Shown here one piece after another: positions 21,754 to 56,746 of a DNA stretch of 58,794 bases (within the stretch, counting starts at the first letter, position 1; each line of letters starts with the position of its first letter). The DNA is taken from positions 1 through 58,794 of the forward strand of contig CAYUAG010000009.1 in assembly GCA_964442615.1 (NCBI GenBank), read 5' to 3'. Origin of the DNA: an uncultured bacterium. Lineage in GTDB: Bacteria; Zhuqueibacterota; QNDG01; CAYUAG01. Both the position numbers and the translations under genes were made by a program. Below the pieces are notes generated by a model that worked only from the letters and a program-made list of their open reading frames with translations, was not told where the DNA came from and did not search any database.

Positions 21754-22251
21754 ATGAATCCAGTTTTGATTTTAGAACATTCTCATGAGCAAGTTAGTAC
21801 TACCCTGAAGCAACAGAAAAAAGCAGTGGAAAACCAGAATAACATGGATGTGTGTCTCTGTGTTTTAGAGAAAAACGGTGGTCAGCAACTGTTATTTGCC
21901 GGAGCTAAGCGTTCCCTGTATATCATAAAACGAGGAGAGAATACACTAACTGAGATAAAAGGAGACCGAAAGTCCATTGGAGGAAGGCAGCGGGAGGAGG
22001 AGCGGGTATTTACCGGACATGAGCTTAAGGTTCGGAAAGGAGACAGGTTATACTTAACCACAGACGGATTTGCTGATCAGCAGAATTCAAAGAACAGACG
22101 ATATGGATCAAGACGGCTGAAAACTTTTCTACAGTCAGTTTCTGAGCTGGAGATGCAGGAGCAGGAGAAAGTATTAGCTCAGGAATTAGCCAGACATCAG
22201 GGTAAGGAGGAACAGCGGGATGATATTACGGTGGTAGGGGTGAAGATATGA
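21754..22251 (+). pseudogene. Array unit A0: C-terminal fragment of a SpoIIE/PP2C phosphatase
   Basis: Starts mid-domain at the internal Met of the paralogs' KIMNP. Lacks VSGDFY and DCTGHG, and DGMD has become NNMD. The 3' half is nearly identical to the paralogs (TTDG, RDDITV). Confidence 0.85.
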
Positions 22252-22269
22252 ATAACAGAATGAACAAGA

Positions 22270-25200
22270 GTGAAATATACAGGGAATCTGTTTGGAAGAG
22301 AACAAAGCTGTTCAATTTTTTTTTATTGTACGATTTTAATGATGAAAAGGAGTAATGTGATGATGTTATGTTCAAGATTATTTTTACAATTAAAACTAAA
22401 ACTACAATTAGTATGTGTTGTATTTGTAATTAGTTTACCTGTTGTACTGTTTTCAGAAAATAATATCCATTTTGAAAATATTTCTGTTGAACAGGGGCTT
22501 TCTCAAATTTCAGTCAATTGTTTGCTTCAGGACAGGAATGGATTTATGTGGTTTGGAACCCTAGATGGACTCAATAAATATAATGGCTATAACTTCAAAA
22601 TTTATCAATATGAGATAAAGGACCCCAGTACATTATCTCATAACTCTATACTTTCAATCTTTGAAGATCGATCCGGTTTGATATGGATTGGTACGGATGG
22701 GGGCGGTCTTAATAGATATGATCCTAAAACAAATCAGTTTAAACATTATAAATATGATCCCCAAAATGCTCATAGCATCAGTGATAACAGGGTGACTGCC
22801 ATATTTGAAGACAAATCGAATATACTCTGGATTGGAACAATAAATGGCCTCAATAAATTTGATCCCAAAGAACAGCAGTTCTTTCGTTATTTCCATGATC
22901 CAGAAAATACCAACAGCCTGGGGAATAATTATATTCAATGTTTATGTGAAGTCCAAACAGGTGACATCTGGATTGGAACAGGTGGCGGTGGGATATCTGT
23001 CCTGAGTCGGAATAACCAAGGTAAAGATCAGTTTACCCATATCAAACGGGATCCAAAAAATCTCAGCAGTTTGATCAATAATACTGTTAACTCAATTCTT
23101 CAAGACAACACGGGGATGATATGGATCGCAACTAATGGAGGACTGGATAAATATGATCCGGGAAAAAAACAATTTACCCATTTCCAAAATGATCCAGACA
23201 ATCCCAAAAGCCTGATTAATAATACTGTTAACTCAATTCTTCAAGATAGCACAGGGATGATATGGATCGGAACTAATGGAGGACTGGATAAATATGATCC
23301 AGGAAAAGAACAATTTGTCCACTATATGGATGAATCTTTTTCTATCACAACATTTTGCAAGGATAGAACAGGTGTTCTTTGGATAGGGACCATTGGCAGT
23401 GGGATCTATAAATTTTATAGAGAAAAAGAAAATTTTCTCCATTACAATCGAGATCTTTCTGATACCAATAGCTTGATCAGCAATGTGGTATGGTCTTTTT
23501 GTGAGGATAGCCGGGGAATACTATGGATTGGAACTGTGAGTGGACTGGATCAATTCGATCGTTCTAAAAACCAATTCATTCACTATACAAATGACCCTCA
23601 AAATCCAAACAGTTTGAGTAACAATGATGTCAGATCAATCCATGAAGATCAAAGTGGAGCCCTTTGGATCGGAACCAGCGGAGGGGGGCTGAATAAACTG
23701 AACAGAGACCGAAACCAATTTAAAAGATTTCTGAATAATCCCCGTAATCCCACCAGTTTGAGTCATAATTTTGTCTCAATAATCTTTGAGGATAGAAAAA
23801 AAATGTTATGGATTGGAACCTACGGTGGTGGTTTGAATAAATTTGATCGACACAAAGGAGAGTGTACCCGTTATGTGAAAGATCCAAATGATATCAATAG
23901 TCTGGCACACAATTATGTTAATGTCATTTATGAAGACCGTACCGGGAAACTCTGGATCGGCACCCGCGGTGGGCTGGATAAATTTGATCAACAGAACAAC
24001 TGTTTTATTCACTACAAAAATGACCCGGATAATCCCAATAGCCTGAGTTATAATTTGATTTTTTCTATCCTTGAGGACCAATCAGGTATGTTGTGGATCG
24101 GGACATATGGAGGTGGATTAAATAGATTAAATCCCAGAACAGAAACATTTACTCATTTCACAGAAAAGGATGGGCTTCCAAATGATGCTATTTATGGGCT
24201 TCTTATGGACAAAGCTGGAAATATTTGGATAAGTACAAATAATGGGTTGTCACAATTTAATCCAGAAACACAAATATTTAAAAATTTTAATATAAGCGAC
24301 GGACTGCAAAGCAAGGAATTTGATAGAGGAGCATATTATAAAAGCATAAGAACGGGAGAAATGTTTTTTGGTGGCGTTAATGGTTTTAATGCATTTTTTC
24401 CTGATAAAATTAAAGATAATCCATTTATTCCTCAGATTGTCATAACGGATTTTAAGTTATTCAATACATCTGTTTTGATTGGAGAAAAGATTGATGATCG
24501 AATCATCTTGACGAAAAGCATAACAGAAACAGACAAGATTGAAATCTCTTACAAACAAAATGTTTTATCCTTTGAGTTTGCCGCGTTACATTATATCTCC
24601 CCGGAAAAAAATCAATATGCATATATGATGGAAGAACTGGATAAGGATTGGAATTATGTGAACAACCGGCGATTTGCCTCCTATACAGGTATTCCTCCAG
24701 GTAAATACACTTTCAGAGTTAAAGCCTCCAATAATGATGGGGTGTGGAATGAAAAGGGAGCATCCATTAAAATAACCATTACTCCTCCTTTTTGGCAGAC
24801 CTGGTGGTTTCGAACTTTGATAGCAATTTTTATTATAGGAATTGCTTTCAGCTGGTATAAGATGAAAGTTAGAAACCTGGAAAGACAGAAACAGAAACTT
24901 GAAAAGCAGGTTAAGGAGAGGACTACCGAAATTCGACATAAGAATAAACAACTTGAGAAAAAGAATGAGCAGATCTTAAGCAGCATCCGCTACGGAGAGC
25001 GTATTCAGAATGCTATTTTACCCCTGACTGAAAAGATACGATCTTCTATACCTCAACACTTCATTCTTTATAAACCAAGAGATATTGTCTCCGGTGATTT
25101 TTACTGGTTTAATCAAATTGATGGGAAGATAGTATTAGCTGTGGTAGACTGTACTGGTCATGGAGTACCAGGAGCCTTCATGTCAATGATGGGTAATGCT

Positions 25201-25734
25201 TTTTTGAATGAAATAGTTACTGAACAAAAGATCATGAATCCCTCTTTGATTTTAAAACGTCTTCATGAAGAGGTCCGTACTGCTTTAAAGCAGAAACAAG
25301 AGAAGGTTGACACCCAGGATGGTATGGATGTGTGTCTCTGTGTTTTAGAGAAAAACAGTCACACCCAAAAGCTTTTATTTGCGGGAGCCAAGCGTCCGCT
25401 CTTTGTTTTCAAAAAGGGAGAGTCTAAACTTACTGAAGTTAAAGGAGACCGCAAATCAATTGGGGGAAAGCAGCGGGAGGAGAAGCGGGAATTTACCGGA
25501 CATGAGCTTAAGGTTCGGAAAGGAGACAGGTTATACCTGACCACAGACGGATTTGCTGATCAGCAGAATTCAAAGAACAGACGGTATGGATCAAGACGGC
25601 TGAAAACTTTTCTACAGTCAGTTTTTGAGCTGGAAATGCAGGAGCAGGAGAAAGTATTAGCTCAGGAATTAACCAGACATCAGGGTAGAGAGGAGCAGCG
25701 GGATGATATTACGGTGATGGGGGTGAGGGTGTGA
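22270..25734 (+). CDS. Array unit A1: Reg_prop beta-propellers, Y_Y_Y, TM, SpoIIE/PP2C phosphatase
   Basis: Repeated D..G.LWIGT.GGL..FD blades, YTGIPPGKYTFRVKASNNDGVW, PPFWQTWWF plus TM, VSGDFY, DCTGHG, DGMD, TTDG, RDDITV. True start is probably downstream of the GTG. Confidence 0.92.
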   Translation: MKYTGNLFGREQSCSIFFYCTILMMKRSNVMMLCSRLFLQLKLKLQLVCVVFVISLPVVLFSENNIHFENISVEQGLSQISVNCLLQDRNGFMWFGTLDGLNKYNGYNFKIYQYEIKDPSTLSHNSILSIFEDRSGLIWIGTDGGGLNRYDPKTNQFKHYKYDPQNAHSISDNRVTAIFEDKSNILWIGTINGLNKFDPKEQQFFRYFHDPENTNSLGNNYIQCLCEVQTGDIWIGTGGGGISVLSRNNQGKDQFTHIKRDPKNLSSLINNTVNSILQDNTGMIWIATNGGLDKYDPGKKQFTHFQNDPDNPKSLINNTVNSILQDSTGMIWIGTNGGLDKYDPGKEQFVHYMDESFSITTFCKDRTGVLWIGTIGSGIYKFYREKENFLHYNRDLSDTNSLISNVVWSFCEDSRGILWIGTVSGLDQFDRSKNQFIHYTNDPQNPNSLSNNDVRSIHEDQSGALWIGTSGGGLNKLNRDRNQFKRFLNNPRNPTSLSHNFVSIIFEDRKKMLWIGTYGGGLNKFDRHKGECTRYVKDPNDINSLAHNYVNVIYEDRTGKLWIGTRGGLDKFDQQNNCFIHYKNDPDNPNSLSYNLIFSILEDQSGMLWIGTYGGGLNRLNPRTETFTHFTEKDGLPNDAIYGLLMDKAGNIWISTNNGLSQFNPETQIFKNFNISDGLQSKEFDRGAYYKSIRTGEMFFGGVNGFNAFFPDKIKDNPFIPQIVITDFKLFNTSVLIGEKIDDRIILTKSITETDKIEISYKQNVLSFEFAALHYISPEKNQYAYMMEELDKDWNYVNNRRFASYTGIPPGKYTFRVKASNNDGVWNEKGASIKITITPPFWQTWWFRTLIAIFIIGIAFSWYKMKVRNLERQKQKLEKQVKERTTEIRHKNKQLEKKNEQILSSIRYGERIQNAILPLTEKIRSSIPQHFILYKPRDIVSGDFYWFNQIDGKIVLAVVDCTGHGVPGAFMSMMGNAFLNEIVTEQKIMNPSLILKRLHEEVRTALKQKQEKVDTQDGMDVCLCVLEKNSHTQKLLFAGAKRPLFVFKKGESKLTEVKGDRKSIGGKQREEKREFTGHELKVRKGDRLYLTTDGFADQQNSKNRRYGSRRLKTFLQSVFELEMQEQEKVLAQELTRHQGREEQRDDITVMGVRV

Positions 25735-28700
25735 TGATTGACAATGAAGTTAACATAATAATTCTTAGTATAGAGAATATATTTTTATAATAATTAAAGG
25801 AATTTGTTATGAAAAATCGTAAACAATGGTATTGGGTACAATTTTTTATATTTTTAGTTTTTAGTTGTGTTTACGCTTCAGACAAAGATATTCATTTTCA
25901 ACATATTACTATCAATGATGGTCTATCTCAAAATTCTGCCAATTGTTTACTCAGGGACAAGAAAGGATTCATGTGGTTTGGAACCCAGGATGGATTGAAT
26001 CGATTTGATGGGTATGAATTTACTGTCTATAGAAACGATCCCATGGACTCAACCTCAATATCTGATAATTATATTCTGTCTATGATTGAAGATTATACCG
26101 GAGCTATCTGGGTTGGAACCCAGAATGGATTAAATAGATTTTCTGTTGAGAAAGAGATATTCAAACGATATTGCTTTTGTACTGATAGTCCTTATTGCTT
26201 GTGTGACAAACAAATAAAAACTATTCATGAATCATTTGTTGAGCCCGGGATTCTCTGGATCGGTACTGAGAATGGGTTAAGTCAATTGAATGTTGAAAAC
26301 GAGCAAGTGACAAATTATTTTCACGATACTCAATAATTCAATAGTCTGATTCACAATAATGTGGAGGTGATTTATCAAACACGTTCACATCCAGAAGTCA
26401 TCTGGATTGGTACTGAGGGGGGATTGGATAAGTTTAATATAGAAAAGCAACAATTCATTCATTATCAATATGATCCGGATAATTCCAACAGTTTATGTCA
26501 TAATCATGTGATGGCCCTTTATAAAACTCCATCAGAACCGGGAGTGCTTTGGATCGGAACCAGGCATGGATTGGATCGATTTGATATGGAGAAAGAACAG
26601 TTTACTCATTACCGTCATAATCTCAATAATCCCAATAGTCTTATTCATGATTACATCAGGGCTATTTATGAATCCCCGGAAGAACCAGGAATACTCTGGA
26701 TAGGTACCTTTGGAGGAGGTTTGGATAAATTCAATAAAGCAAATAAAAAATTCACCCACTACGTTTATAAAATTGAAAATTCCAGCAGCATCAGTGATAA
26801 TTTTATTTTAAATTTTTGGGAGGATGAATCGAAAATTTTATGGATTGGAACTGAGGGAGGAGGAATTAATCAATACAATCGAGTTTCCAAACAGTTTCTA
26901 TTATATCAGCATGATCCTAATAATCCCAACAGTTTAAGCATTAATCACGTTCGCTCCATTTATGAATCTCCATTAGATTCAACTATTTTGTGGATAGGAA
27001 CCTACGATGGATTGAATAAATGGGATCGAGAGAGAGGGATTTTTACCTGCTATAATCATGATCCGAAAAATCCAAATAGTTTGAGCAGTAATTTGATACG
27101 GGTTGTTTATGAAGACAGAAGCGGTTTAGTATGGATTGGGACTTATAATGGTGGTCTCAATCAATTTGATCCTAAAACAGGAGTGTTTAATCACTATCGT
27201 CATGATCCGGATGATTCCTATAGTATAAGTAATGATTATGTCAGGACTTTGTATCAAGACAGATCAGGAGCGATATGGATAGGAGCGGTTGGAGGTGGAC
27301 TGGATCGTTTTGATAATAAAAATGGCCGTTTTTATCACTATACTTATAATCCAGATGATTCCACTGGTATAAACAGTGATCGTGTATATGCTATCTGTGA
27401 AGATAAAGAGGGTATTCTCTGGTTGGGAACATCTAAGGGATTGAATCGATTTGATCGAGAGTCAGAAACATTTACCTATTATACCCATGATCCAAATGAT
27501 CTTACAAGTATAGGGAATAATCTTGTTATGAGTGTTTATAAAGATAGAAGAGGACAGTTGTGGATAGGAACATGGGGAGGAGGAATAAACAGGTTTGATC
27601 ATCAGACTGAAAAATTTTATCGTTATACAAAAAAAGATGGTCTGGCTAATGATGTGGTGTATGGTATTCTTGAAGATAAGCAAGGAAATCTCTGGCTCAG
27701 CACCAATTATGGATTGTCAAAATTTAATCCAGAGAAAAAAACTTTTAAAAATTATGATGTGACTGATGGCCTTCAGAGCAATGAATTCAATGCTGGTGCT
27801 TATTATCAGAATATAAGAGGAAAAATGTTTTTTGGAGGAATCAATGGATTGAATGCATTTTATCCCGATAAAATCAGAGACAATCCCTATATTCCTCCTA
27901 TTGTGATTAATGATTTTCAGATATCGAATCAAACAGTTCCAATTAAGAGTCAAGATGAGGAAGATGTGATTTTATCAAAATCCATTATCTATACTAATGC
28001 AATTACTCTCTCTTATAAAGAGGATGTTATATCTTTTGAATATTCAGCACTGAATTATGTGTCTTCTGAAAAGAATCAGTACGCCTATATAATGGAGGGT
28101 TTGGATAAAGAGTGGAATTACGTAGGAGAGAGGCGTTTTGTAACCTATACTACTCTTCCTCCAGGTGAATATACGTTTCGAGTAAAAGGCTCCAATTGCG
28201 ATAGGATATGGAATGAGGAGGGAACATTTTTAAAGATCATCATTACTCCTCCTTTCTGGCAGACGTGGTGGTTTAAAATAGTAGCCGGGTTGTTACTCAT
28301 GGCCGTAGTTTATTTTATATTCTATCTTAAGACAAAGAGTTTTAAAAAAAGAGAGAAAAAACTTCAAAAAACTGTTCAGGAACGAACCAAGAAGTTAGAG
28401 CAAGCAAACAAAAATTCTAAAATCCTGAAAGATGAGGCTCAAAAGAAAGCTGTTCAATCTGATTTATTATATAGAATAGGGCAGAGAGTGAGTAGCGAAT
28501 TGGAAACAAAATCTCTTTTTAATGAAATAGTCAAGTCCATACGAAAAACTTATAATTATTTCCATGTAGCGATTTTATATTTAGATGAAAACACAGAAAA
28601 GATCAAATTAAAAGCCATATCCAGCGCTGAACCCGAAAAACATCTTAAAGAATTAACCCTGTCTTTAGGACAAGGAATGATAGGGCAGGCAGTTTTAACT

Positions 28701-28956
28701 GGTAAAATCAAGATAACTGGCAATGTTCGAAAAAATCCTCACTATGTTAGAATCAAAGAAGAAACCATACAATCTGAACTTGATATTCCGTTAAAAAGCG
28801 GTAATAAGGTTATGGGTGTTCTTAGTATACAAAGTGATAAATTAAACGCATTTGATAAAACAGATATTACAGTAATGGAGATTCTCAGTACTCAAATTGT
28901 TTCGGCTATAGAAAACGCCCGGCTTTATGAACAGACAAAACGACGAGCAGTTCAAT

Positions 28957-29344
28957 CTGCGATAATTTATAAGACTGGTCAGCGGGTTGGCAGTCAGTTA
29001 GAAATTGATGCTCTGCTGCCTGAAATTGTGACCTCTGTTTGTGATGAATTTGACTATTACAGCGTAGCTCTTTTAATGATAAATGAGAAGTCAGATCATT
29101 TAATTTTGAAGGCTATAGCTGGGGAAAATGCTAAGTTTGCTCCAGTTAGTTCAAAGATTAGAATGGGAGAGGGAATAACAGGATATGTTGCCCAGTGTGG
29201 TGAGACACAGGTCTCAGGAGATATTAGAAAGAATTCTCATTATGTTTCTTTTGGAAAAGAAAAAACCAAATCTGAGCTGACAGTACCATTAAGGAGTGGG
29301 AAGAGAATTATTGGTGTTCTTGATATTCAAAGTGATACATTAAA
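28957..29344 (+). repeat. 388-bp GAF-coding direct repeat; second copy at 44746-45133
   Basis: I found no differences by eye from ctgcgataatttataagactgg to gtgatacattaaa. Offset 15789. Confidence 0.85.
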
Positions 29345-31627: not shown

Positions 31628-31645
31628 CGTGGTGGTGGTGAAGAT

Positions 31646-46628: not shown

Positions 46629-49600
46629 GTGAAATCTGCGCTATCAGTGGCTAAAAGGAATAAGGAAAAACAAATGACAAGTTTTAATTATATCAAAACT
46701 GCATTATTAACACCAATGAAACATTGCTTATATTCAGTGACTGTCAATTATTTATTTTATATTTTTAAAATGGTTGTTTTACTGATTATTGTTTTGTGGA
46801 GTTCTTTTGATGGTTGGGCACTTGATCCCCAAAAAGCGATAACACAATATATTATGAATAACTGGCAGTTGAAAGAAGGGCTTCCACATAACTCTATCCT
46901 TGCAATAGTCCAAACTCGTGATGGTTATATTTGGTTAGGAACAGGAAATGGTCTTGTGCGTTTTGATGGAGTTCGTTTTATTGTCTTTAATAAAAGGAAC
47001 ACAGAACAAATAAAAATGAATGTTATCGAGACGCTTTATGAAGATAGAATAGGAAACCTTTGGATTGGTACCAGCAGTGGACTGGTCTGTCTGCGAGATG
47101 GTAAATTTACTATTTATACAATAGAGGAAGGCTTGTCCCACGACTATGTGAAATCAATCTATGAAGATAGGGTGGGTAATCTCTGGATCGGAACCAAGGG
47201 TGGCGGATTGAACCGGCTTAAAGATGGAAAATTTACTGCTTATACTACAGAAGAGGGCTTATCAAACAATAATGTCAAGTCAATTTATTTGGATCGAGAA
47301 GGGACTCTCTGTATCGGTACTGAGGGTGGGGGATTGATGTTGTTGAGAGATGAAAAGTTCACCATCTTTACTACAAAAGATGGTCTGTCAAACAATTATA
47401 TATCTTCTCTTTATGAAGATCAAAAGGGGAATCTATGGATTGGTACCTTGAATGGACTTAATAAATTCAGAGATAGTGAATTTACAGCTTTCACTACGAA
47501 AGAGGGTATGTGTAACAATGAAGTGAACGTGATCTATGAGGACAGGGAAGGTAATCTCTGGATTGGTACTGATGGCGGGCTTAATCGATTCAAAGATGGT
47601 GAATTTGCTTCTTTGACGATGAAAGAGGATTTGTCTCACAACATTGTGTGTTCAATCTATGAGGACAGGGAAGGGAATCTATGGGTAGGTACCTTGGATG
47701 GCGGGCTAGTCTGTCTTCGAGATGGTAAATTAAGTACTTATAGCACCAAAGAAGGTCTTTCGCATAATTTTATCTATTCAGTTTATGAAGATCGAGTAGG
47801 GAATATATGGATTGGTACTAGTAATGGTGGTCTGAACTGTTTAAAAGATGGTAAATTCACAACTTATACTTCCAGAGATGGTATTTCAACAAACAGCAAC
47901 ATTTTGACTATCCTGGAAGACCGAGAAAGAGCTCTCTGGATTGGTACTGATTGTGGCCTAAATCGAATGAAAGAAGGAAAATTCACCATCTACACAATCA
48001 AAGAAGGTCTTTCTGATGACATGGTCAGATGTGTTTATGAAGATCAAGCTGGCAATCTATGGATCGGTACTCACAATGGCGGTCTAAATCGGCTGGAGAA
48101 TGGAAAGTTTATCAATTACACAACCAATGATGGATTAATGAGCAATACAATCACATATCTTCATGAAGATAAAGAAGGAGCACTCTGGATAGGTACTCTT
48201 GGTGGATTGAACTGCATTAAGGAGGGAAAAATTACCTCCTATACTACTAAAGAGGGGCTGACAAACAACAACATTAATACTATCTATGGAGATCATGAGG
48301 GAACACTCTGGATAGGTACACGATGTGGCGGTTTGAATTGTCTCAAAGATGGAAAATTTACCTCTTACAGTATTAAAGACGGCCTCTTTAGCGATGTTAT
48401 TATTCATATCCTTGAAGATAATAATAATAATCTTTGGATTAGTTACAATAATGGAATTTTTCAGGTTAGTAAGAAAGATCTCAATGATTTTACAGATGGG
48501 AAAATCAATGCCATCCATTCCACCTCATACGGCTTAGTCGATGGAATGAGGAGCAGTTCATGTACTGGGGGTGTACAGTCTGCAGGATTGAAGAGTCATG
48601 ATGGAAAACTTTGGTTTCCAACCTTAAACGGAGTTGTTATGATTGATCCAGATAATATTAAAATTAACAAACTGCCGCCGCCTGTGATTATTGAGGAAGT
48701 ATCAGTTGATAATATGATAATTAACCCTGAATTAATAAAAAAAATTGATCGGATTGTTTTTTCTCCAGGAAAAGAAAGGTTTGAATTTTACTATACTGCA
48801 TTGAGTTTCACAGTTCCCGAAATGGTAAAATTCAAATACAAATTGGAAGGGTTTGATATAAATTGGATAGATACGGATAATAGAAGAATGGCTTATTACA
48901 TGAACATTCCACCAGGGGACTATATATTTAAAGTTATTGCATGTAATAACGATGGTGTTTGGAACACGACAGGTGCTAGCTTTTCCTTTTATCTAAAACC
49001 TTTTTTTTATCAGACAAAGTGGTTTTATGGTTTGTGTGTTGTGTTAGTTTTTTTTATGGGATTTATAGGGTACCGTCTGCGAGTTCGACAGTTAAAAGTA
49101 CAGAAGAAAAAGCTCGAAAGGAAAGTAGAAGAAAGGACGAAAGAAATAAGAGAACAGAAATATATTATCGAAGAAAAGAATGAACAACTCCAAAAGAAGA
49201 ACGAACAAATACTTAGCAGCATCCGATACGGGGAGTGTATACAAAATGCTATTTTACCCCTGACCGAAAAGATACGATTTTCTATACCTCAACACTTCAT
49301 TCTTTATAAACCAAGAGATATTGTCTCCGGTGATTTTTACTGGTTTAATCAGGTAAATGGAAAGATAGTTTTGGCAGTGGTGGACTGTACCGGTCACGGT
49401 GTGCCGGGAGCCTTTATGTCCATGTTAGGTAATGCTTTCCTAAATCAAATAATTACTGAACAACAAATAATGGATCCTTCTTTGATTTTAACACGTCTTC
49501 ATGAGGAAGTTCGGACTGCCTTAAAGCAGGAACAAGGGGAAGCCGACACTCAGGACGGTATGGATGTGTGCCTCTGTGTTTTAGAGAAAAACAGGCACAA

Positions 49601-49970
49601 ACAAAAGGTTTTCTTTGCCGGAGCCAAATGTCCGCTCTATATCATAAAAAAAGGAGAGACTGAGATTACGGAGATAAAAGGAGACCGCAAGTCAATTGGG
49701 GGAAAGCAGCGGGAGGAGAAGCAGTTATTTACTAATCATGAGATTAAGGTTCAGAAAGGAGACAGGTTATACTTAACCACAGATGGATTTGCGGATCAGC
49801 AGAATTCAAACAATAGACGATATGGCTCAAGACGGTTGAAAATTTTTCTTCAGTCAGTTTCTGAGCTGAGTATGCAGGAACAGAGGGAAGCACTGGTACA
49901 AGAGTTGGCCAGTCATCAGGGAATAGAGGAACAGCGAGATGATATTACAGTAGTGGGAGTGAAGGTTTAA
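46629..49970 (+). CDS. Array unit A7: short-blade propeller subtype, Y_Y_Y, TM, PP2C (start probably ATG 46674 or later)
   Basis: ALDPQKAITQY start of the mature domain, about 42-aa blades of type YEDREGNLWIGT.GGL..LKDGKFT.YT..EGLS, PFFYQTKWF, PP2C motifs. Confidence 0.92.
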   Translation: MKSALSVAKRNKEKQMTSFNYIKTALLTPMKHCLYSVTVNYLFYIFKMVVLLIIVLWSSFDGWALDPQKAITQYIMNNWQLKEGLPHNSILAIVQTRDGYIWLGTGNGLVRFDGVRFIVFNKRNTEQIKMNVIETLYEDRIGNLWIGTSSGLVCLRDGKFTIYTIEEGLSHDYVKSIYEDRVGNLWIGTKGGGLNRLKDGKFTAYTTEEGLSNNNVKSIYLDREGTLCIGTEGGGLMLLRDEKFTIFTTKDGLSNNYISSLYEDQKGNLWIGTLNGLNKFRDSEFTAFTTKEGMCNNEVNVIYEDREGNLWIGTDGGLNRFKDGEFASLTMKEDLSHNIVCSIYEDREGNLWVGTLDGGLVCLRDGKLSTYSTKEGLSHNFIYSVYEDRVGNIWIGTSNGGLNCLKDGKFTTYTSRDGISTNSNILTILEDRERALWIGTDCGLNRMKEGKFTIYTIKEGLSDDMVRCVYEDQAGNLWIGTHNGGLNRLENGKFINYTTNDGLMSNTITYLHEDKEGALWIGTLGGLNCIKEGKITSYTTKEGLTNNNINTIYGDHEGTLWIGTRCGGLNCLKDGKFTSYSIKDGLFSDVIIHILEDNNNNLWISYNNGIFQVSKKDLNDFTDGKINAIHSTSYGLVDGMRSSSCTGGVQSAGLKSHDGKLWFPTLNGVVMIDPDNIKINKLPPPVIIEEVSVDNMIINPELIKKIDRIVFSPGKERFEFYYTALSFTVPEMVKFKYKLEGFDINWIDTDNRRMAYYMNIPPGDYIFKVIACNNDGVWNTTGASFSFYLKPFFYQTKWFYGLCVVLVFFMGFIGYRLRVRQLKVQKKKLERKVEERTKEIREQKYIIEEKNEQLQKKNEQILSSIRYGECIQNAILPLTEKIRFSIPQHFILYKPRDIVSGDFYWFNQVNGKIVLAVVDCTGHGVPGAFMSMLGNAFLNQIITEQQIMDPSLILTRLHEEVRTALKQEQGEADTQDGMDVCLCVLEKNRHKQKVFFAGAKCPLYIIKKGETEITEIKGDRKSIGGKQREEKQLFTNHEIKVQKGDRLYLTTDGFADQQNSNNRRYGSRRLKIFLQSVSELSMQEQREALVQELASHQGIEEQRDDITVVGVKV

Positions 49971-50020: not shown

Positions 50021-53000
50021 GTGATTTTTAACAGAAGAAATACTATGCACATAAAGCTATTTGGGAATGAAAAAATTAATTGGAATGTGATTTTTTATTT
50101 ATGGATACTCGAATTTATTTTTATTGAGCCTGTTTATGTACAGTCAGGAAGGGATATCCGTTTAGAACAGATTTCCCTTGAACAGGGCTTGTCCCAAGTT
50201 ACAGTCAATTGCATACTTCAAGATAGACAGGGTTTCATGTGGTTTGGGACCCAGGATGGATTAAACAAGTATGACGGTTATCAATTTACAGTGTACCGCC
50301 ATGAACCAAATGATAGTACAAGTTTAAGTTATAATCTTATTTTATCGATATTTGAAGATCAGGACGGGTATCTGTGGATTGGTACTGAGGGAGGAGGATT
50401 AAATAGATTCAATCCTAATACTGAATCCTTTATTCATTATAAGAATCAAATTGGAGACTCACTCAGTCTTAGTAATAATTCTGTTTATTCCATTTTAGAG
50501 GATACCAGAGGTAACTTGTGGGTAGGAACTTATAATGGATTAAATAAGTTTGATCGAAACTTAAAAAAAATTATTCGTTATCAGAACCAGCCTAATAATC
50601 CCCATAGTTTGAGTCATAACAGAATTTCATTTATATTGGAAGATCACAATGGTAATCTGTGGATTGGAACGGAACATGGATTAAATAAATTTGAACAAAA
50701 TTCGGAATCTTTTATTTCTTACCTGAATAATCCTGATAATTCTCTAAGCCTTAGCAATAATAATATCAAGTCTATATTAGAGGATTATAGAGGTAACTTG
50801 TGGATTGGCACTTTTGGTGGTGGATTAAATAAATTCAATATAAAAACTGAAACCTTCACCAGTTACCAAAATCAAGTTGATAATCCCAACAGCCTTAGTA
50901 ATAATTTTATCATGTCAATTTTTGAAGATTCCAGAAACAACTTGTGGATTGGGACTTCTGGTGGTGGGATAAACAAGTTAAATCCAGAATCGGAGATTTT
51001 CATAAACTATCAGCACAAGCCTAATGATCCTAAAAGTCTTGGTAATAACATAGTAATGCCAATTTTTGAAGATAGAGGAGAAAATCTGTGGATAGGAACT
51101 ATTGGAGGCGGATTGAATAGGTTTGATCCTAAGACTGAATCCTTTACTTGTTATAAACACCAAGTAAATAATCCTTATAGTCTCAATAATAATTTTGTGT
51201 TGTCGATTTTTAAAGATTCGAATGATGACCTGTGGATCGGAACAGCTGATGGTTTAAATAAATTTAATCCACTAACAAAGATCTTTACATTATATCAGCA
51301 CTACAAGGATGATCCACATAGTCTTAGCCTTAACAATGTTATGTCTATTATTGAAGATACAGATGGCAGCTTGTGGATTGGGACTTATGGTGGTGGATTA
51401 AATAAATTCGATCGTAAAACTGAAACTTTCATCTGCTATAAGAACCAGGATGGCAATCCTGAAAGTCTAAGTAATAACTTTGTGTTAAGACTTTTGAAAG
51501 ATTCGGAAGGAATTTTATGGATTGGGACAAAAAATGGTTTAAATAGATTTGATGAAAAAACAGAAACTTTTACTCATTTTTGGCACCAAACTGATAATCT
51601 CCATAGTCTTAGCCATAATAATGTATATTCTATTTTTGAAGATTGCAGTGGAATCCTTTGGTTTGGGACACAAGATGGATTAAATAAATTTGATAGGAAG
51701 TCAGAAACCTTCACTCAATATAAAAATCAGGTTAATAATCCCCATACAATAAGTCATAATTTAGTCAGGTCGATTTATAAGGATGCCGAAGGTAACCTGT
51801 GGATTGGGACAGATGGCGGATTAAATAAACTTGTCCCGAGTGATAACGAGGGATCTCCCCCAACCTTCACTTGTTACAGAGAAAAGGATGGTTTGTCAAA
51901 TGATGTTATATATGGAATTCTTGAGGATGATAATGGTTGTTTATGGTTAAGTACCAATAAAGGAATTAGTAAGTTTAATCCTGAAATTAATTCCTTCATT
52001 AATTATGATGTAAAAGATGGTCTGCAAAGTAATGAGTTTAATACAGGTTCATGTTATAAGGATGGAAATGGTCAAATGTATTTTGGTGGAGTAAACGGTT
52101 TCAATGTTTTTCACCCTGATAGCATAATGAATAATACATATGTGACACCTGTAGTTATTACAGATTTTTTGCTATTTAATAAACCAGTGAAAGTATCCCG
52201 AAATGGCAACAAATCCGACCGGTTTGAACTACAGAAACACATAAATTTCATAGGAGAAATAACTTTAGATTATACGGACTACATTTTTGCTTTTGAATTT
52301 TCAGCTTTGAATTACCGGCAATCGGAAAAAAATCAATTTGCCTATAAATTAGAAGGTTTTAACAAAGAGTGGATTAAAACAGATCATCTTCACCGCAGAG
52401 CGACTTATACGAATTTGCCTCATGGCGAATATGTATTCAGAGTAATAGCTTCAAATGATGATGGCTATTGGAACGAGGAAGGTACCAGTATTACGTTGAC
52501 CATCCTTCCTCCATTTTGGAAAACCTGGTGGTTTCGAAGTCTGATTATTGCGTTCATTGTAGGGAGTGCTTTTAGTTGGTATAAAATGCGGGTTAGAAAT
52601 CTGGAGAGACAGAAACAGAAACTTGAAAAGCAGGTTAAAAAAAGGACAATAGAAATACGTTATAAGAATAAACAACTTATGGAGAAGAATAATCAGATAC
52701 AAGAAAAGAACGAACAGATCTTAAGCAGCATCCGATATGGGGAGCGTATTCAAAATGCTATTTTACCCCTTGCCGAAAAGATACGATCTTCTATACCCGA
52801 ACATTTCATTTTTTTTAAACCAAGAGATATTGTTTCAGGTGATTTTTACTGGTTTAATCAACTAGATGGAAAAACTGTTCTGGTTGTGGTTGACTGTACT
52901 GGTCACGGTGTGCCTGGAGCCTTTATGTCCATGATTGGTAACATTGTGCTCAACGAGATTATTATCGAACAACAGATTACTAATCCTAAAAAGATTTTAG

Positions 53001-53479
53001 AGCGTCTTCATGAAGAAGTACGAACTGCCTTAAAACAGGAACAAGAAGAAGGTGTTACCCAGGACGGTATGGATGTGTGTCTCTGTGTTTTAGAGAAAAA
53101 TAGTCATAAACAAGAGCTTTTATTTGCCGGAGCCAAGCGTCCCTTATATATTATAAAAAAAGGTGAGATTGAACTTATTGAAATAAAAGGTGACCGTAAG
53201 TCAATAGGGGGGAGGCAGCGGGAGAAAAATCGGGTATTTACCAGTCATGAGATAGAGGTTCAGAAAGGAGATCAGTTATATCTGACTACAGATGGTTTTG
53301 CAGATCAGCAGGATTCAAAGAACGGGCGGTATGGATCAAGGCGTTTGAAAACTTTTCTCCAGTCAGTTGCTGAGCTGGAAATGAAGGAGCAGGGAGAAGT
53401 ATTAGCTCGGGAAATAGCCAAGCATCAGGGTAGAGAAGAACAGCGGGATGATATTACAGTGGTTGGGATAAAGGTGTGA
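50021..53479 (+). CDS. Array unit A8: propellers, Y_Y_Y, TM, PP2C
   Basis: Blade repeats with NPNSL-type loops, YTNLPHGEYVFRV, PPFWKTWWF, intact PP2C motifs. Confidence 0.93.
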   Translation: MIFNRRNTMHIKLFGNEKINWNVIFYLWILEFIFIEPVYVQSGRDIRLEQISLEQGLSQVTVNCILQDRQGFMWFGTQDGLNKYDGYQFTVYRHEPNDSTSLSYNLILSIFEDQDGYLWIGTEGGGLNRFNPNTESFIHYKNQIGDSLSLSNNSVYSILEDTRGNLWVGTYNGLNKFDRNLKKIIRYQNQPNNPHSLSHNRISFILEDHNGNLWIGTEHGLNKFEQNSESFISYLNNPDNSLSLSNNNIKSILEDYRGNLWIGTFGGGLNKFNIKTETFTSYQNQVDNPNSLSNNFIMSIFEDSRNNLWIGTSGGGINKLNPESEIFINYQHKPNDPKSLGNNIVMPIFEDRGENLWIGTIGGGLNRFDPKTESFTCYKHQVNNPYSLNNNFVLSIFKDSNDDLWIGTADGLNKFNPLTKIFTLYQHYKDDPHSLSLNNVMSIIEDTDGSLWIGTYGGGLNKFDRKTETFICYKNQDGNPESLSNNFVLRLLKDSEGILWIGTKNGLNRFDEKTETFTHFWHQTDNLHSLSHNNVYSIFEDCSGILWFGTQDGLNKFDRKSETFTQYKNQVNNPHTISHNLVRSIYKDAEGNLWIGTDGGLNKLVPSDNEGSPPTFTCYREKDGLSNDVIYGILEDDNGCLWLSTNKGISKFNPEINSFINYDVKDGLQSNEFNTGSCYKDGNGQMYFGGVNGFNVFHPDSIMNNTYVTPVVITDFLLFNKPVKVSRNGNKSDRFELQKHINFIGEITLDYTDYIFAFEFSALNYRQSEKNQFAYKLEGFNKEWIKTDHLHRRATYTNLPHGEYVFRVIASNDDGYWNEEGTSITLTILPPFWKTWWFRSLIIAFIVGSAFSWYKMRVRNLERQKQKLEKQVKKRTIEIRYKNKQLMEKNNQIQEKNEQILSSIRYGERIQNAILPLAEKIRSSIPEHFIFFKPRDIVSGDFYWFNQLDGKTVLVVVDCTGHGVPGAFMSMIGNIVLNEIIIEQQITNPKKILERLHEEVRTALKQEQEEGVTQDGMDVCLCVLEKNSHKQELLFAGAKRPLYIIKKGEIELIEIKGDRKSIGGRQREKNRVFTSHEIEVQKGDQLYLTTDGFADQQDSKNGRYGSRRLKTFLQSVAELEMKEQGEVLAREIAKHQGREEQRDDITVVGIKV

Positions 53480-53488
53480 GAAATATAA

Positions 53489-56400
53489 ATGGATCAGGCA
53501 ATGAAAATTAAATTTATTCACTTTAACAATATTTCCTTTTGGAGACTTAGGTTTATTATTATAATTACAGTTTTGTTGGGTCCAATTACTGGCTTGGCGC
53601 TTGATCCAAATAAGGCTGTTACACAATATAGTCATGATGTGTGGCAGACAGAGGACGGTCTTCCACATGAAAACATTATAGCTATAATCCAAACACACGA
53701 CGGTTACATCTGGCTGGGGACACCAGTGGGGCTCGTCCGTTTTGATGGAGTACGGTTTACTCTATTTGATAAGAGTAATACAGCTAACATAAAAAATAAT
53801 AATATTACAGAACTTTTTGAGGACAGAGAAGGAACGCTTTGGATTGGTTCAGAGGGTGGATTATACCAATTGAATGATGGGGAATTTACCTTATATACTG
53901 TGAAAGATGGCTTATCAAGCAATTACATTAGGTCAATCTATGAAGATAAGGAAGGGAGTCTCTGGATAGGCACATACGGTGGCGGGGTAAATCGATTGAG
54001 AGATGGAAAATTCACATTTTACACTACACAAGAGGGTTTGTCTTACGATTATGTGATGTCTATCTGCGAGGACCGAGAAGGGAATCTTTGGATTGCCACA
54101 CAAGGACGTGGGCTTAATCGACTAAAAGATGGGAAAATTACTACTTATACCACTCAAGATGGTTTGTCTAATGATGTCGTGATGTCAGTCTATGAGGACC
54201 GGGAGGGAAATCTCTGGATAGGCACATACGGTGGCGGGGTAAATAAACTACAAGACGGAAAATTTACTTCTTATACTACCTCAGAAGGCCTGTCGCATAA
54301 TTCTGTTATTTCAATTGTTGAGGATAAAGATTGGAATCTGTGGATTAGCACTGATGGAGGGGGGGTGAGCCGGCTAAAAGATGGAAATTTTTCCACCTTT
54401 ACCACTAAAGACGGTCTGTCTAACAATACAGTACGGTCAATCTTTGAGGATAGAGAGGGGAGCCTTTGGATAGGCACATATGGGGGTGGATTGAACCGAC
54501 TTAAAGATGGAAAATTTACAACATACACTTCAAAAGAAGGGTTGTCTGGCGAACTTGTGATGTCAGTTTATAAGGACATGGAAGGCAGCCTTTGGCTTGG
54601 CACATCCGTTGGTGGCATAAATCGATTCAAAGATGGAAAATTTACAGCCTACACCACAAAGGAAGGGCTTTCGCATAAAATTGTGACGTCGATCTATGAA
54701 GACAGAAATGAAATCCTATGGATTGGTACACTAGGTGGCGGAATTAACCGATTTAAAGACGGAAAATTTACAATTTATGCCAGAAAAGAAGGACTGTATA
54801 ATCCCTATATAAGGTCACTCTGTACAAGTAAGGATGGTAGTCTTTGGATTGGCACACACGGAAGCGGACTTTTCTGCATGAACGATGAGAAATTTATAAA
54901 TTACACCGTAGAAGATGGTCTTTCTAACGGTATTATATGGTCAATATATGAAGACAGAAAAGGCTTCCTCTGGGTTGGCACAAATGGCGGGTTGAACCGA
55001 TTCAAAGACGGGGAATTTACAGTCTACACCACGAAAGAGGGATTATCTGACGATATCGTACTATCAATATATGAGGATAGAGAAGGAAACCTCTGGGTTG
55101 GTACACATCATGGCGGGCTAAATCTATACAGAGATGGGGAATTTACAACATATACAAAGCAAGAAGGACTGTATGAGGAAAGCATTTTTAAAATCCTCGA
55201 AGATAACAAAGGAAACCTCTGGATGAGTTCTATAAAGGGCATCTTCAGAGTCTGCAAAAAAGAACTTATTGATTTCGCCGATAGGAAAATTAAGTCAATT
55301 AATTCTTATGCTTATGACAAGGCAGATGGAATGAAGAGTAATGAATGCACTATTGGTTGCCCTGCAGGATGGAAAAGCAGTGATGGAAAATTATGGTTTC
55401 CGACTATGAAAGGTCTGGCAATGATTGACCCGGAAAATATAAAAACAAATGAACAGCCCCCACCTGTGATACTTGAGCAAATCATTATTGACAATGAATT
55501 AATTGACCTGGAGGAGAATGTCCCGTTCTCTCCGGGCAAAAAGAAATTTGAGTTTCACTATACTGGACTGAGTTTTTTGGTACCTGAGAAGGTTAAGTTT
55601 AAATACAAATTAGATGGATTTGATAAGGACTGGATAGACGCTGGTACACGCCGAACGGCTTATTACACCAACATTCCACCTGGGGATTATACATTTAAAG
55701 TTATTGCTTGTAATAACGATGGAGTATGGAATGAAACCGGTGCTTCCTTTCACTTTTATTTAAGATCCTATTTTTATCAGACGAAATGGTTTTATGGTTT
55801 ATGTGTTTTGTCCTTATTATCAATGGGATTTATGATTTACCGGTTACGAGTTCGACAATTGACGGCCCAGAAGAAGAAACTTGAAATAAAAGTAACAGAA
55901 AGGACAAAAGAGATCAGGGAACAGAAAGAAATTATTGAGCAAAAGAAGGAACAACTCCAAGAGAAGAACGAGCAAATTACGAGCAGTATCCGATACGCAA
56001 AACGTATTCAACAAGCGATTCTACCATTGGATGAAAGAATTCAATCTTTTCTGCCGGAACATTTTATCTTATATAAGCCGAAGGACATTGTCTCTGGTGA
56101 TTTCTACTGGTTCAATCAAATCAATGGTAAGATCCTTCTTGCGGTTGTGGACTGCACGGGTCACGGCGTACCCGGCGCTTTCATGTCCATGATCGGGAAT
56201 ATCCTGTTGAATGAAATCGTCAATGAGCTGCACGTCACCGATCCGGCATTGATTTTAGAGAATCTGCATATAGGTGTACGTTCTGCCTTAAAGCAGGAGA
56301 ATGGAGAGACTAATACAGATGACGGCATGGATATTTGCTTATGCGTTTTGGATAGGAAAATGAAAAATGTTGTCTTTGCTGGTGCAAAGCGTCCGCTTTA

Positions 56401-56746
56401 TTTAGTAAGGGGAAATAATCACGGTTTAGAACAATCTGAAATCATAGAAATTAAAGGGGATCGGAAGTCAATCGGTGGAAAACAAAGAGAAAAAAGACGC
56501 ACCTTCACGAGAAGGAAAATCAAAATTCAAGAAGAAGACGAAATTTATCTGATGAGTGATGGGTTTATCGATCAATCGGATACTGAGAATAGAAAATATG
56601 GAACGAAGCGAATGAAGAATTTCTTAGAGTCGATTGCGGGATTGGATGTTGAAAAACAGAAAGAAGCATTACTTCAGGAATTGGTGAACCATCAGGGAAA
56701 GGAAGAACAGAGGGATGATATTACCGTGGTGGGAGTAAGGGTGTAA
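53489..56746 (+). CDS. Array unit A9: short-blade propeller subtype, Y_Y_Y, TM, divergent PP2C
   Basis: ALDPNKAVTQY, 42-aa blades, YFYQTKWF. PP2C has YAKRIQQAILP, DCTGHG, DDGMD, MSDG, RDDITV. Confidence 0.93.
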   Translation: MDQAMKIKFIHFNNISFWRLRFIIIITVLLGPITGLALDPNKAVTQYSHDVWQTEDGLPHENIIAIIQTHDGYIWLGTPVGLVRFDGVRFTLFDKSNTANIKNNNITELFEDREGTLWIGSEGGLYQLNDGEFTLYTVKDGLSSNYIRSIYEDKEGSLWIGTYGGGVNRLRDGKFTFYTTQEGLSYDYVMSICEDREGNLWIATQGRGLNRLKDGKITTYTTQDGLSNDVVMSVYEDREGNLWIGTYGGGVNKLQDGKFTSYTTSEGLSHNSVISIVEDKDWNLWISTDGGGVSRLKDGNFSTFTTKDGLSNNTVRSIFEDREGSLWIGTYGGGLNRLKDGKFTTYTSKEGLSGELVMSVYKDMEGSLWLGTSVGGINRFKDGKFTAYTTKEGLSHKIVTSIYEDRNEILWIGTLGGGINRFKDGKFTIYARKEGLYNPYIRSLCTSKDGSLWIGTHGSGLFCMNDEKFINYTVEDGLSNGIIWSIYEDRKGFLWVGTNGGLNRFKDGEFTVYTTKEGLSDDIVLSIYEDREGNLWVGTHHGGLNLYRDGEFTTYTKQEGLYEESIFKILEDNKGNLWMSSIKGIFRVCKKELIDFADRKIKSINSYAYDKADGMKSNECTIGCPAGWKSSDGKLWFPTMKGLAMIDPENIKTNEQPPPVILEQIIIDNELIDLEENVPFSPGKKKFEFHYTGLSFLVPEKVKFKYKLDGFDKDWIDAGTRRTAYYTNIPPGDYTFKVIACNNDGVWNETGASFHFYLRSYFYQTKWFYGLCVLSLLSMGFMIYRLRVRQLTAQKKKLEIKVTERTKEIREQKEIIEQKKEQLQEKNEQITSSIRYAKRIQQAILPLDERIQSFLPEHFILYKPKDIVSGDFYWFNQINGKILLAVVDCTGHGVPGAFMSMIGNILLNEIVNELHVTDPALILENLHIGVRSALKQENGETNTDDGMDICLCVLDRKMKNVVFAGAKRPLYLVRGNNHGLEQSEIIEIKGDRKSIGGKQREKRRTFTRRKIKIQEEDEIYLMSDGFIDQSDTENRKYGTKRMKNFLESIAGLDVEKQKEALLQELVNHQGKEEQRDDITVVGVRV

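Follow-up and report, generated by a model that had tools for sequence, protein, structure and literature searches.

Nine propeller-type sensor phosphatases encoded in tandem may converge on a single SiaC partner switch

Contig CAYUAG010000009.1 of the metagenome-assembled genome (MAG) GCA_964442615.1, from an uncultured bacterium of the Zhuqueibacterota, encodes ten SpoIIE/PP2C-type phosphatase units in a row (21754-56746), nine of which are receptors with a predicted periplasmic sensor. The window that we analyzed is this whole contig (C9; 58,794 nucleotides), and the genome, which we will term G000, comprises 3.58 Mb in 146 contigs and is 85.7% complete. In the explanation that best fits all of our data, and which we consider fairly probable, the nine sensor phosphatases converge on a SiaC partner switch that gates a hybrid histidine kinase. 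Because of homology, copy numbers, and co-occurrence, it is likely that the nine enzymes act on the single SiaC of this genome. Whether SiaC then controls the adjacent hybrid kinase via a stalk, instead of a cyclase, we rate as an even bet, based on homology and modeling.

The array had been described from the sequence alone as ten consecutive units on one strand, separated by about 75 bp or less. The list of open reading frames (ORFs) and a Pfam scan bear this out: eleven ORFs, all on the plus strand, make up ten PP2C units (a 165-amino-acid (aa) fragment and nine receptors), and the gaps between the units are, in order, 18, 74, −4, 60, 71, 71, 66, 50, and 9 bp. A SpoIIE-type PP2C forms the C terminus of every unit, and in nine units it is preceded by Reg_prop repeats and Y_Y_Y (Pfam). 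The order within a receptor is signal peptide, twin beta-propeller and Y_Y_Y sensor, transmembrane (TM) segment, helical linker, and PP2C. The N termini of the receptors are signal-peptide-like, and their SpoIIE domains score 74.8-91.6 bits against a Pfam cut-off of 25. With a strict hydropathy threshold, a TM segment after Y_Y_Y was detected in four of the nine units, but in the nine-way alignment all nine have a hydrophobic segment at this place, followed by a charged helical stretch of about 50 residues. Pfam and the alignment agree, then, with the earlier statement that nine units carry a Reg_prop/Y_Y_Y sensor and a TM segment. The catalytic motifs that had been named as metal-binding (VSGDFY, DCTGHG, DGMD, TDG/SDG, and DDITV) are invariant columns in the alignment of the nine receptors, but the claim that they are kept does not extend to the fragment (U0), in which QDGMD has changed to QNNMD. 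The nine proteins contain no HisKA, HATPase, receiver, or DNA-binding module and no HAMP domain by Pfam. The assembly (3.58 Mb) has 24 SpoIIE matches, 10 of them in these 35 kb; with a profile built from the array's own PP2Cs, all ten matches in the assembly at E ≤ 1e-30 lie inside the array.

The sensor of U6, our reference unit, matches the structures 4A2L/4A2M in the PDB over its full length (E = 9e-137), and 3V9F and 3OTT also match. Judged by sequence, the array sensors are truly homologous to the periplasmic part of the hybrid two-component sensors of Bacteroides, as the preliminary description had it. We take the sensor domains of 4A2L/4A2M, 3V9F, and 3OTT to bind glycan fragments.

The phosphatase has a single relative of known structure. 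When a profile of the nine PP2Cs was searched against 177,635 distinct PDB sequences, 6K4E was the sole match (E = 1.6e-51), and the PP2C of U6 alone also found 6K4E (E = 4.1e-44), with the next matches (RssB and Rv1364c) at E ≥ 0.011. 6K4E is the SiaA-PP2C of P. aeruginosa. As summarized in the preprint on this protein, SiaA dephosphorylates SiaC at T68, SiaB is the kinase that opposes SiaA, and SiaA-PP2C is a homodimer (bioRxiv 10.1101/674879). The best NCBIfam model for the array proteins is prot_phos_SiaA; they reach 235.6 bits and miss the equivalog cut-off of 700 because the PP2C part alone aligns (model positions 376-657). The array PP2Cs are of the SiaA type, then: they are relatives with a different sensor and not orthologues of SiaA. 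The original proposal of a shared Ser/Thr dephosphorylation output was right about a phosphatase output but too generic, as the similarity is specifically to a SiaABC-type partner switch. The 14 other SpoIIE matches in G000 are RsbU-like, and some are beside STAS and RsbW genes (for example on contig C60); the full-length copies among them (n = 12) score 128-180 bits on SpoIIE, versus 75-92 for the array. Another contig (C59:11560-14892, minus strand) encodes a tenth propeller/Y_Y_Y receptor, which is fused to an RsbU-like PP2C (145 bits on SpoIIE and only E = 5.8e-13 on the array profile). So, the same sensor class feeds two PP2C subfamilies in G000.

A six-frame ORF scan of G000 found one SiaC, two SiaB proteins, one stalk-bearing protein, and ten SiaA-type PP2Cs, all ten of them in the array; the next PP2C matches have E ≥ 7e-14. 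The candidate target is encoded on contig C45 in a row of four genes: a SiaB-family kinase (193 aa), SiaC (127 aa), a second SiaB-family kinase (188 aa), and a hybrid histidine kinase (965 aa; GAF-HisKA-HATPase-REC-REC-Hpt) whose gene overlaps the previous one. SiaC matches PF09345 with 137.5 bits (cut-off 24.5; E = 7e-40), although it is below its equivalog model (115 versus 150), and its YLNTSS motif aligns with T68 of P. aeruginosa SiaC. The two SiaB kinases score 142.9 and 150.9 bits on NF038262 (cut-off 85).

The hybrid kinase has no GGDEF domain and keeps a SiaD-like stalk at its N terminus. A profile built from the first ~135 residues of the kinase (from G000 and relatives) matches the stalks of three SiaD-like cyclases with E from 1e-17 to 1e-24, and in the six-frame scan the stalk was on no other protein of G000. 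Beyond this genome, the same stalk heads a histidine kinase gene of 334 aa, and a truncated, shorter ORF, after each SiaC in two genomes of the same order (G014 and G027), and it is present on a 353-residue kinase ORF that follows SiaB-SiaC in an Opitutaceae MAG (L011). A search of the ESM Atlas with the N-terminal 135 residues of the kinase returned only unnamed clusters at 0.90. Chen et al. (2021, PMC8457831) found SiaD to be bound and activated by SiaC in its unphosphorylated form, and they suggested a modulating role of DUF1987/SiaC proteins toward adjacent proteins. We predicted the structure of a complex of two kinase stalks (residues 1-140) and two SiaC, with our own alignments and in a setup that differs from the tool's calibration, and obtained a score of 0.84, versus 0.16 for the best of three controls. 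(Of 80 solved complexes, 58 reach that mark, as do 2 of 110 mismatched pairs.) The runs share at least 92% of contacts, and the partner's predicted local distance difference test (pLDDT) score is at least 87. In the predicted interface, SiaC residues 65-69 and 71-73, around T68, contact stalk residues 66-83, a stretch with the invariant columns T72, S75, D76, and Q79-L82.

The distribution of these genes within the phylum is consistent with a functional link. The PP2C subfamily is present in 4 of 167 species genomes, from 2 of 100 genera: G000, its congener G002, and G014 and G027, which belong to another family of the same order. SiaC is present in the same four genomes, and a 66-aa remnant of it is present in G003, another congener of G000. 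In G002, the SiaB-SiaC-SiaB-kinase row is 63-73% identical to that of G000. In G003, the SiaC remnant (contig C63, L111:3340-3537) is directly followed by Sua5, LMWPc, and DUF3108 genes. As these same genes follow the kinase in G000, the module was deleted in G003. The genome scan of G003 found no SiaA-type PP2C, which suggests that the array and the SiaBC module were lost jointly and recently, with rearrangement. At the expected place of the array in G003, next to the M23 gene (contig C159, L092), there are transporter and sigma-54-activator-like fragments.

To look beyond the phylum, we scanned one genome per species for the motifs of the subfamily and found at least 598 stretches, the best 80 of which we analyzed as loci. 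These loci are mostly titled Bacteroidota and are 39-48% identical to the array. At 24 of the 80, a propeller/Y_Y_Y sensor is on the same ORF as the PP2C (25 ORFs); the remaining N termini include TPR, GAF, and kinase/STAND types. Among the latter is a 1790-aa protein of a Microscillaceae MAG (L007:5402-10771) that combines a Ser/Thr protein kinase, a STAND-type AAA_16 ATPase, GAF, and a SiaA-type PP2C. A SiaC-like ORF is at 18 of the 80 loci and a SiaB-like ORF at 17, often directly after a PP2C gene. It had been suggested that genomes be searched for three or more adjacent sensor-PP2C genes, and SiaA-type runs do turn up in Bacteroidota MAGs: six loci have 3-5 strong PP2C ORFs, or up to six with weaker copies (L040, L046, L052, L055, L069, and L076), and at four of these (L040, L046, L055, and L076) at least four PP2C ORFs are consecutive on one strand. 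At L040, L046, and L052, SiaB and SiaC genes close the tandem run. The SiaB partner at L046 (14523-15695, minus strand) is a fused double kinase of 391 aa with two DUF6272 stretches, and the SiaB-partner ORF at L040 (13280-14428, minus strand) is of similar length; G000 has two separate SiaB genes. Five Bacteroidota genomes that we reached via such loci have 53, 62, 54, 46, and 16 PP2C matches, with 8-13 SiaC, 3-4 STAS, and 2-4 HATPase_c_2 matches (E ≤ 1e-8).

A simpler form of the system also exists. In an even sample of 401 species from the phylum of these relatives, with up to six candidates scored per genome, 23 species had a PP2C match at E ≤ 1e-40. (Two genomes had 73-74 first-look candidates, one of which was the chosen center of the sample.) The five best-matching genomes each have one SiaA-type PP2C and one SiaC. 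In three genomes (G265, G353, and G365), a single operon encodes a propeller/Y_Y_Y-SiaA protein (1180-1195 aa), SiaB, SiaC, and a stalk with GGDEF, and the PP2Cs score 320-334 bits on the array profile. The stalk and GGDEF frames are 253-325 residues long, and diguan_SiaD is their best or second-best NCBIfam model (172-188 bits, cut-off 290). So, there is a single-copy, one-operon form, and the lineage of the window carries an amplified and split form. In our PP2C tree (all of our trees are quick, unrooted trees), the clade of the window's lineage adjoins Cytophagales sequences (99). As the subfamily is also rare in the window's phylum, this suggests that it was acquired from Bacteroidota. GC content gives no sign of a recent transfer (0.348 for the genome and 0.365 for the array).

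All units of the array are on the plus strand. U0 (21754-22251) retains just the last two thirds of a SiaA-type PP2C (56.1 bits on SpoIIE, covering positions 40-190 of the 192 in that profile; array-profile positions 92-265); it is placed within the U1-U9 clade of the PP2C tree and is a relic of recombination. U1 (22270-25734; Reg_prop 230.5, Y_Y_Y 73.8, and SpoIIE 89.6 bits) is a receptor phosphatase whose true start is probably a later ATG. U23 (25809-31649) is a receptor with three GAF and one PAS domains between the TM segment and the PP2C. One in-frame TAA (26334-26336) splits it into two listed ORFs, U2 (25809-26336) and U3 (26361-31649); translated past this codon, it is a receptor of 1946 residues. 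In four sequencing runs (described below), no variant is reported at this TAA, but the longest contig pieces listed nearby start only at 26358-26386, past the codon, and so need not cover it. U4 (31646-35059) is a receptor phosphatase whose start overlaps the stop of U23 by 4 bp, and U5 (35120-38539) and U6 (38611-42006) are receptor phosphatases by Pfam. U7 (42078-46562) has one GAF domain, and its cytoplasmic part is a shortened near-copy of that of U23. U8 (46629-49970) joins a U10-like sensor and TM segment to a U1-U7-like PP2C and is the clearest mosaic. The last two receptor phosphatases are U9 (50021-53479; Reg_prop 255.2, Y_Y_Y 59.9, and SpoIIE 91.6 bits) and U10 (53489-56746), whose PP2C has diverged the most (59-65% identity to the others). 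In U23 and U7, the GAF modules (28942-29429 and 44731-45218) are 94.9% identical in DNA, and the first helix of these modules is similar to the beginning of the GAF domain of the C45 kinase (a weak match, E = 0.0014).

The two halves of the receptors have diverged to different extents. Pairwise protein identity is 32-58% for the sensors (median 43%) and 59-99% for the PP2C parts (median 80%), so the sensors are indeed the more variable part, as first described. The phosphatases, however, are not "close to identical": near-identity (99%) is found only for U23 and U7, whose sensors are 51% identical in protein. Synonymous divergence is saturated between sensors (median proportion of synonymous differences, pS, of 0.76). 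Between PP2C parts, the median pS is 0.55 and the median number of synonymous substitutions per site (dS) is 0.89, with values of 0.03 for U23/U7 and 0.38 for U1/U23. A comparison of nonsynonymous and synonymous rates had been suggested; dN/dS is about 0.12 for the PP2C part, but the sensor value of 0.19 cannot be relied on, given the saturation of dS. As purifying selection cannot account for a difference in synonymous divergence, we tested for recombination.

Separate trees for the sensor and PP2C parts, which had also been suggested, turn out to be incongruent. The PP2C tree unites U0-U9 with fragments from the congener G002 in one clade (99), with U10 and the genes of G014 and G027 outside it. 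The sensor tree pairs U8 with U10 (100) and sets them apart from the remaining seven array sensors; the sensors of G014 and G027 are among those seven, and distant Bacteroidota sensors are nearer to the seven than U8 and U10 are. We ran approximately unbiased (AU) tests on 35 genes with both parts complete, in which each tested group was named from the tree of the other domain. The PP2C grouping was rejected by the sensor data (p = 5.5e-5), and U8 + U10 was rejected by the PP2C data (p = 0.024). Blocks of 40 codons tell the same story for U8: its DNA identity to U10 is 59-81% over the sensor and TM segment and 55-75% over the PP2C, while its identity to U1 is 45-60% over the sensor and TM segment and 73-87% over the PP2C. 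(U6 resembles U1 in this respect: the PP2C of U8 is 73-87% identical to both.) Other tracts are also mosaic. The PP2C of U1 contains a tract of 94-100% DNA identity in common with U23 and U7, against a background of 76-86%; U5 and U6 are 88-95% identical over the last ~110 codons, versus 75-79% in the first part of the PP2C; and U7 and U23 have DNA matches of 91.9% over 1326 nt and 94.9% over 488 nt. In a permutation test for runs of concordant variable sites, 10 of 28 pairs were significant after Bonferroni correction, and 17 of 28 had p < 0.05. Finally, the spacers at 25735-25808, 38540-38610, and 42007-42077 (74, 71, and 71 bp), which follow U1, U5, and U6 and lead into U23, U6, and U7, are clearly alike, as are the signal-peptide starts that follow them. 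So, some conversion or duplication tracts cross gene boundaries.

Given the unequal dS of the two domains, the conflicting trees, and the mosaic identity tracts, it is very probable that repeated gene conversion or unequal exchange homogenizes the PP2C parts, while the sensors are old paralogues. In G014, two tandem PP2Cs are almost identical although their N termini differ (a propeller sensor in one and GAF/PAS in the other). Homogenization is not a general trait of such arrays, as judged from two Bacteroidota arrays (L046 and L040) in which the PP2Cs are no more alike than the N-terminal parts (identity 0.41-0.42, pS about 0.68).

Could the array instead consist of parallel or decaying paralogues, with separate, redundant, or lost functions, whose PP2C parts are alike through purifying selection only? 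One unit has a stop codon and another is a fragment, catalytic domains are usually more conserved than sensors, and the Bacteroidota genomes with 46-62 copies have 8-13 SiaC, which suggests several parallel pathways there. We nevertheless consider this unlikely for G000. A single SiaC was found in this genome, dN/dS for the PP2C is low and the catalytic motifs are invariant in nine units, and selection on the protein does not explain the difference in synonymous divergence, the incongruent trees, or the mosaic tracts. Also, as the PP2Cs of L046 and L040 are only 0.41-0.42 identical, catalytic constraint alone does not give 80%.

A second possibility is a canonical partner switch, in which the PP2Cs would act like RsbU or SpoIIE on a STAS anti-sigma antagonist and thereby govern a sigma factor, such as the flagellar one. 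All units are above the Pfam threshold for SpoIIE, G000 has 7 STAS matches and RsbW-like kinases, and the array lies between fliE/flgD/fliN and flgN. But the array PP2Cs score far lower on SpoIIE than the twelve other full-length copies and are specifically SiaA-like, and it is those other copies, not the array, that sit with STAS and RsbW genes. No STAS, RsbW (HATPase_c_2), or FlgM gene is in the window, and across the 167 genomes the array subfamily tracks SiaC and not STAS. This explanation therefore seems quite improbable.

Third, the array could be an artefact of assembly, with dispersed paralogues or strain variants chained via the conserved PP2C repeats. The MAG was assembled from short reads at a depth of ~3-8x, the PP2C repeats are 75-100% identical over 300 nt (with a dS of just 0.03 for U23/U7), the assemblies of relatives break within the repeats, and Logan contigs show loose ends at several places. 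Yet at every junction, a short spacer of its own leads into the unique beginning of the following sensor. Logan contigs from four runs (two samples of one marine-sediment study, in pieces mostly of 0.5-3 kb) cover 26200-46199 at ≥97% identity with no joints, and one contig (run X3) spans 31598-34634 and so crosses the U23/U4 junction. The study is probably the source of the MAG, so the four runs are not independent. The congener G002, which was assembled independently, has the same flank: one contig (C1) carries FlgN (52% identical), M23 (68%), and a PP2C end (69%) and then ends, and another (C277) carries a PP2C end and then the start of another sensor gene, although G002 contigs break inside the repeats. 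G014 carries two tandem genes on one contig. As the U23 and U7 PP2Cs are near-identical over ~0.8 kb, the downstream order after each could be swapped, but the array itself would stand, and we find an artefact very improbable.

Finally, the idea of a recombination cassette, in which the conserved PP2C ends, spacers, and signal-peptide starts serve to shuffle sensors as in antigenic variation, would account for the mosaic tracts, the relic U0, and the three similar spacers and N termini, but it is scarcely credible given nine full-length genes each with its own start, no recombinase or invertible element in the window (Pfam), and Logan contigs without alternative joints.

We therefore return to the convergence of the nine sensor phosphatases on SiaC. 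In the mechanism that we propose, a cleavable signal peptide would export the sensor, which is of the type found in hybrid two-component systems (HTCS), to the periplasm. One TM helix and the charged linker of ~50 residues would join it to the cytoplasmic PP2C, with GAF or GAF/PAS added in two members. A ligand on the sensor would alter the activity of a dimeric PP2C through the TM helix and linker. Signaling through a dimeric helical linker is plausible by analogy with RsbU-type phosphatases and with the SiaA-PP2C dimer; control of PPM phosphatases by a dimeric coiled-coil linker is described as general in PMC12143880. All nine enzymes would dephosphorylate one substrate, the single SiaC, and the two SiaB-family kinases beside SiaC would re-phosphorylate it. 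Unphosphorylated SiaC would then dock on the SiaD-like stalk of the hybrid histidine kinase and gate its phosphorelay. In this way, up to nine periplasmic inputs, together with the cytoplasmic GAF/PAS inputs, might be summed on one SiaC~P/SiaC ratio.

As for how this arrangement arose, the ancestor may have been a one-operon system (sensor-SiaA, SiaB, SiaC, and SiaD), a form that is present today in some Bacteroidota. siaA would have been amplified in a region of flagellar genes, and a kinase would have replaced the cyclase behind the stalk. The PP2C parts would stay similar through recurrent gene conversion, while the sensors would remain old and divergent.

Several points weigh against this proposal. 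We infer both the phosphatase-SiaC and the SiaC-kinase links from homology, copy number, co-occurrence, and a model. The preliminary suggestion of many inputs and one output gains from the ratio of ten SiaA-type PP2Cs to one SiaC, which co-occur and were lost together, but its target is a matter of this same reasoning. The co-occurrence comes from two non-independent genera: as the four genomes represent two genera that are kin, it amounts to two or three events and not to statistics. Both the PP2Cs and SiaC are below their equivalog cut-offs (235.6 versus 700 and 115 versus 150). The array is on C9 and the siaB-siaC-siaB-kinase row is on C45, and with an assembly that is 85.7% complete, a second SiaC or further PP2Cs may be missing. 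As a SiaC-SiaD complex has already been solved (7E6G), the score of the stalk-SiaC prediction may reflect memory, and the setup was outside the tool's calibration. The AU test on the PP2C data gives no more than moderate significance (p = 0.024), the sensor and PP2C trees are both quick trees, and the lower dS of the PP2C could partly reflect codon or composition constraints. As U23 is broken by a stop and U0 is a fragment, not all units need be functional. Also, the window contains no polysaccharide utilization locus (PUL) or carbohydrate-active enzyme (CAZyme) genes by Pfam.

The array is flanked by flagellar genes. Upstream are fliE (19399-19686, plus strand; Pfam FliE), flgD (19804-20466, plus strand; Pfam FlgD with FlgD_ig), and fliN (20847-21287, plus strand; Pfam FliMN_C), and between fliN and the array is an AT-rich non-coding stretch of 466 bp (21288-21753) that is a probable promoter region and contains no PP2C remnant in its three forward frames. 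Scans for sigma-70 promoters and terminators in 21200-22400 and 56500-58200 found no more sites than in shuffled sequence. Downstream are an M23 peptidase gene (56768-57667, minus strand) and FlgN (58154-58678, plus strand), both assigned by Pfam and both syntenic in G002, with no FlgM-like ORF between them. These neighbors, together with the role of SiaABCD in aggregation, hint that the output bears on the decision between a motile and an attached life.

The rest of the window has other contents. Upstream of the flagellar genes, 7975-19171 is a dense two-component block (a REC-PAS-GAF-kinase, two sigma-54 activators, two single receivers, a hybrid kinase, a REC-SHOCT protein, and a PAS kinase). 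Before it, 2004-7362 contains two tandem Na+/alanine symporter genes, then an SNF-family transporter, and then a 153-aa ORF that repeats the C-terminal part of the SNF transporter and is possibly a duplicated fragment; the GC content of this segment is 0.40, versus about 0.28-0.31 in the neighboring flagellar region. The protein encoded at 1-1527 carries a C-terminal sorting domain of type IX secretion (Por_Secre_tail/CHU_C), and flagellar genes are present in the same genome. At the other end, a partial ORF (58628-58792, minus strand) runs off the contig; its pattern of Cys and His residues looks like that of an HNH nuclease.

It is instructive to compare the array with known systems. With SiaABCD of P. 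aeruginosa, it shares the only solved relative of its PP2C (6K4E), the SiaB-family kinases, the Thr site of SiaC, and the SiaD-like stalk. However, SiaABCD has one phosphatase and the array has nine, which are unlinked from siaBC; the array sensor is an HTCS-type periplasmic double propeller with no HAMP domain by Pfam; G000 has two SiaB genes; and the effector is a hybrid histidine kinase and not a GGDEF cyclase. Similarly, siaA is not in an operon with siaB, siaC, and siaD in G000, but it is in G265, G353, and G365. The latter loci have the same sensor class, PP2C subfamily, SiaB, SiaC, and stalk, but with one phosphatase and one SiaC per genome, a cyclase effector, and a single operon. The HTCS of Bacteroides (4A2L/4A2M, 3V9F, and 3OTT) are homologous over the full length of the sensor, with the same Reg_prop and Y_Y_Y, but the output of the array is a PP2C, with no HisKA, HATPase, receiver, or AraC-type HTH. 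The runs at L040, L046, and L052 are built of the same PP2C subfamily, with 3-6 genes on one strand that end at a SiaC-SiaB pair, and have the same layout of many phosphatases and few SiaC as the array. They differ in that their sensors are mostly of the cytoplasmic TPR type, SiaBC is linked to the run, and the PP2Cs of L040 and L046 are not homogenized (0.41-0.42); also, the Bacteroidota runs have at most six PP2C ORFs, versus ten in the array. RsbU/RsbP-type PPM phosphatases also join a sensor, a helical linker, and a dimeric PPM domain in a modular unit (as outlined in PMC12143880), and in the stressosome with its RsbR paralogues several sensors feed one switch. In those systems, though, the substrate is the STAS protein RsbV, the switch ends in a sigma factor, and the inputs enter through paralogous scaffolds, not phosphatases.

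In a full-text search of the literature, mostly outside subscription journals and excluding supplements, no paper came up that deals with propeller/Y_Y_Y-PP2C fusions, with multiplied SiaA-type phosphatases or tandem arrays of them, or with SiaC coupled to a histidine kinase. Where the names SiaA and SiaC turn up for Bacteroidota, the leading papers, to judge from title and topic, seem to mean sialidases. The initial impression that no locus with this tandem organization had been described holds for the papers within that scope, but not for public genomes, in which similar runs are present (6 of the 80 loci). SiaABC partner switches as such are known. The novelty lies in the combination of nine propeller-type receptors, one SiaC, a signature of concerted evolution, and a kinase that replaces the cyclase.

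A further, speculative possibility is that the array, the single SiaC, and the stalk kinase form a phosphatase-based integrator that resembles a set of chemoreceptors, in which a Ser/Thr partner switch would drive a His-Asp phosphorelay. As conversion would keep the linker and the dimer surfaces of the PP2C alike, receptor heterodimers might form, which could allow for combinatorial sensing.

In Pseudomonas, SiaABCD is known as a biofilm switch with one sensor. Here, it appears with an ectodomain of the glycan-sensor type, nine-fold and probably against one substrate, and the circuit would have been rewired from a cyclase to a histidine kinase via a transplanted docking stalk. The array offers a natural test case for how many inputs one phosphoprotein can serve, for the modularity of the sensor/coiled-coil/PPM-phosphatase unit, and for gene conversion that would hold output modules compatible with a single partner while the sensors diverge. 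More broadly, SiaA-type phosphatases reach 46-62 copies in some Bacteroidota, a signaling layer for which our search of the literature found no describing paper.

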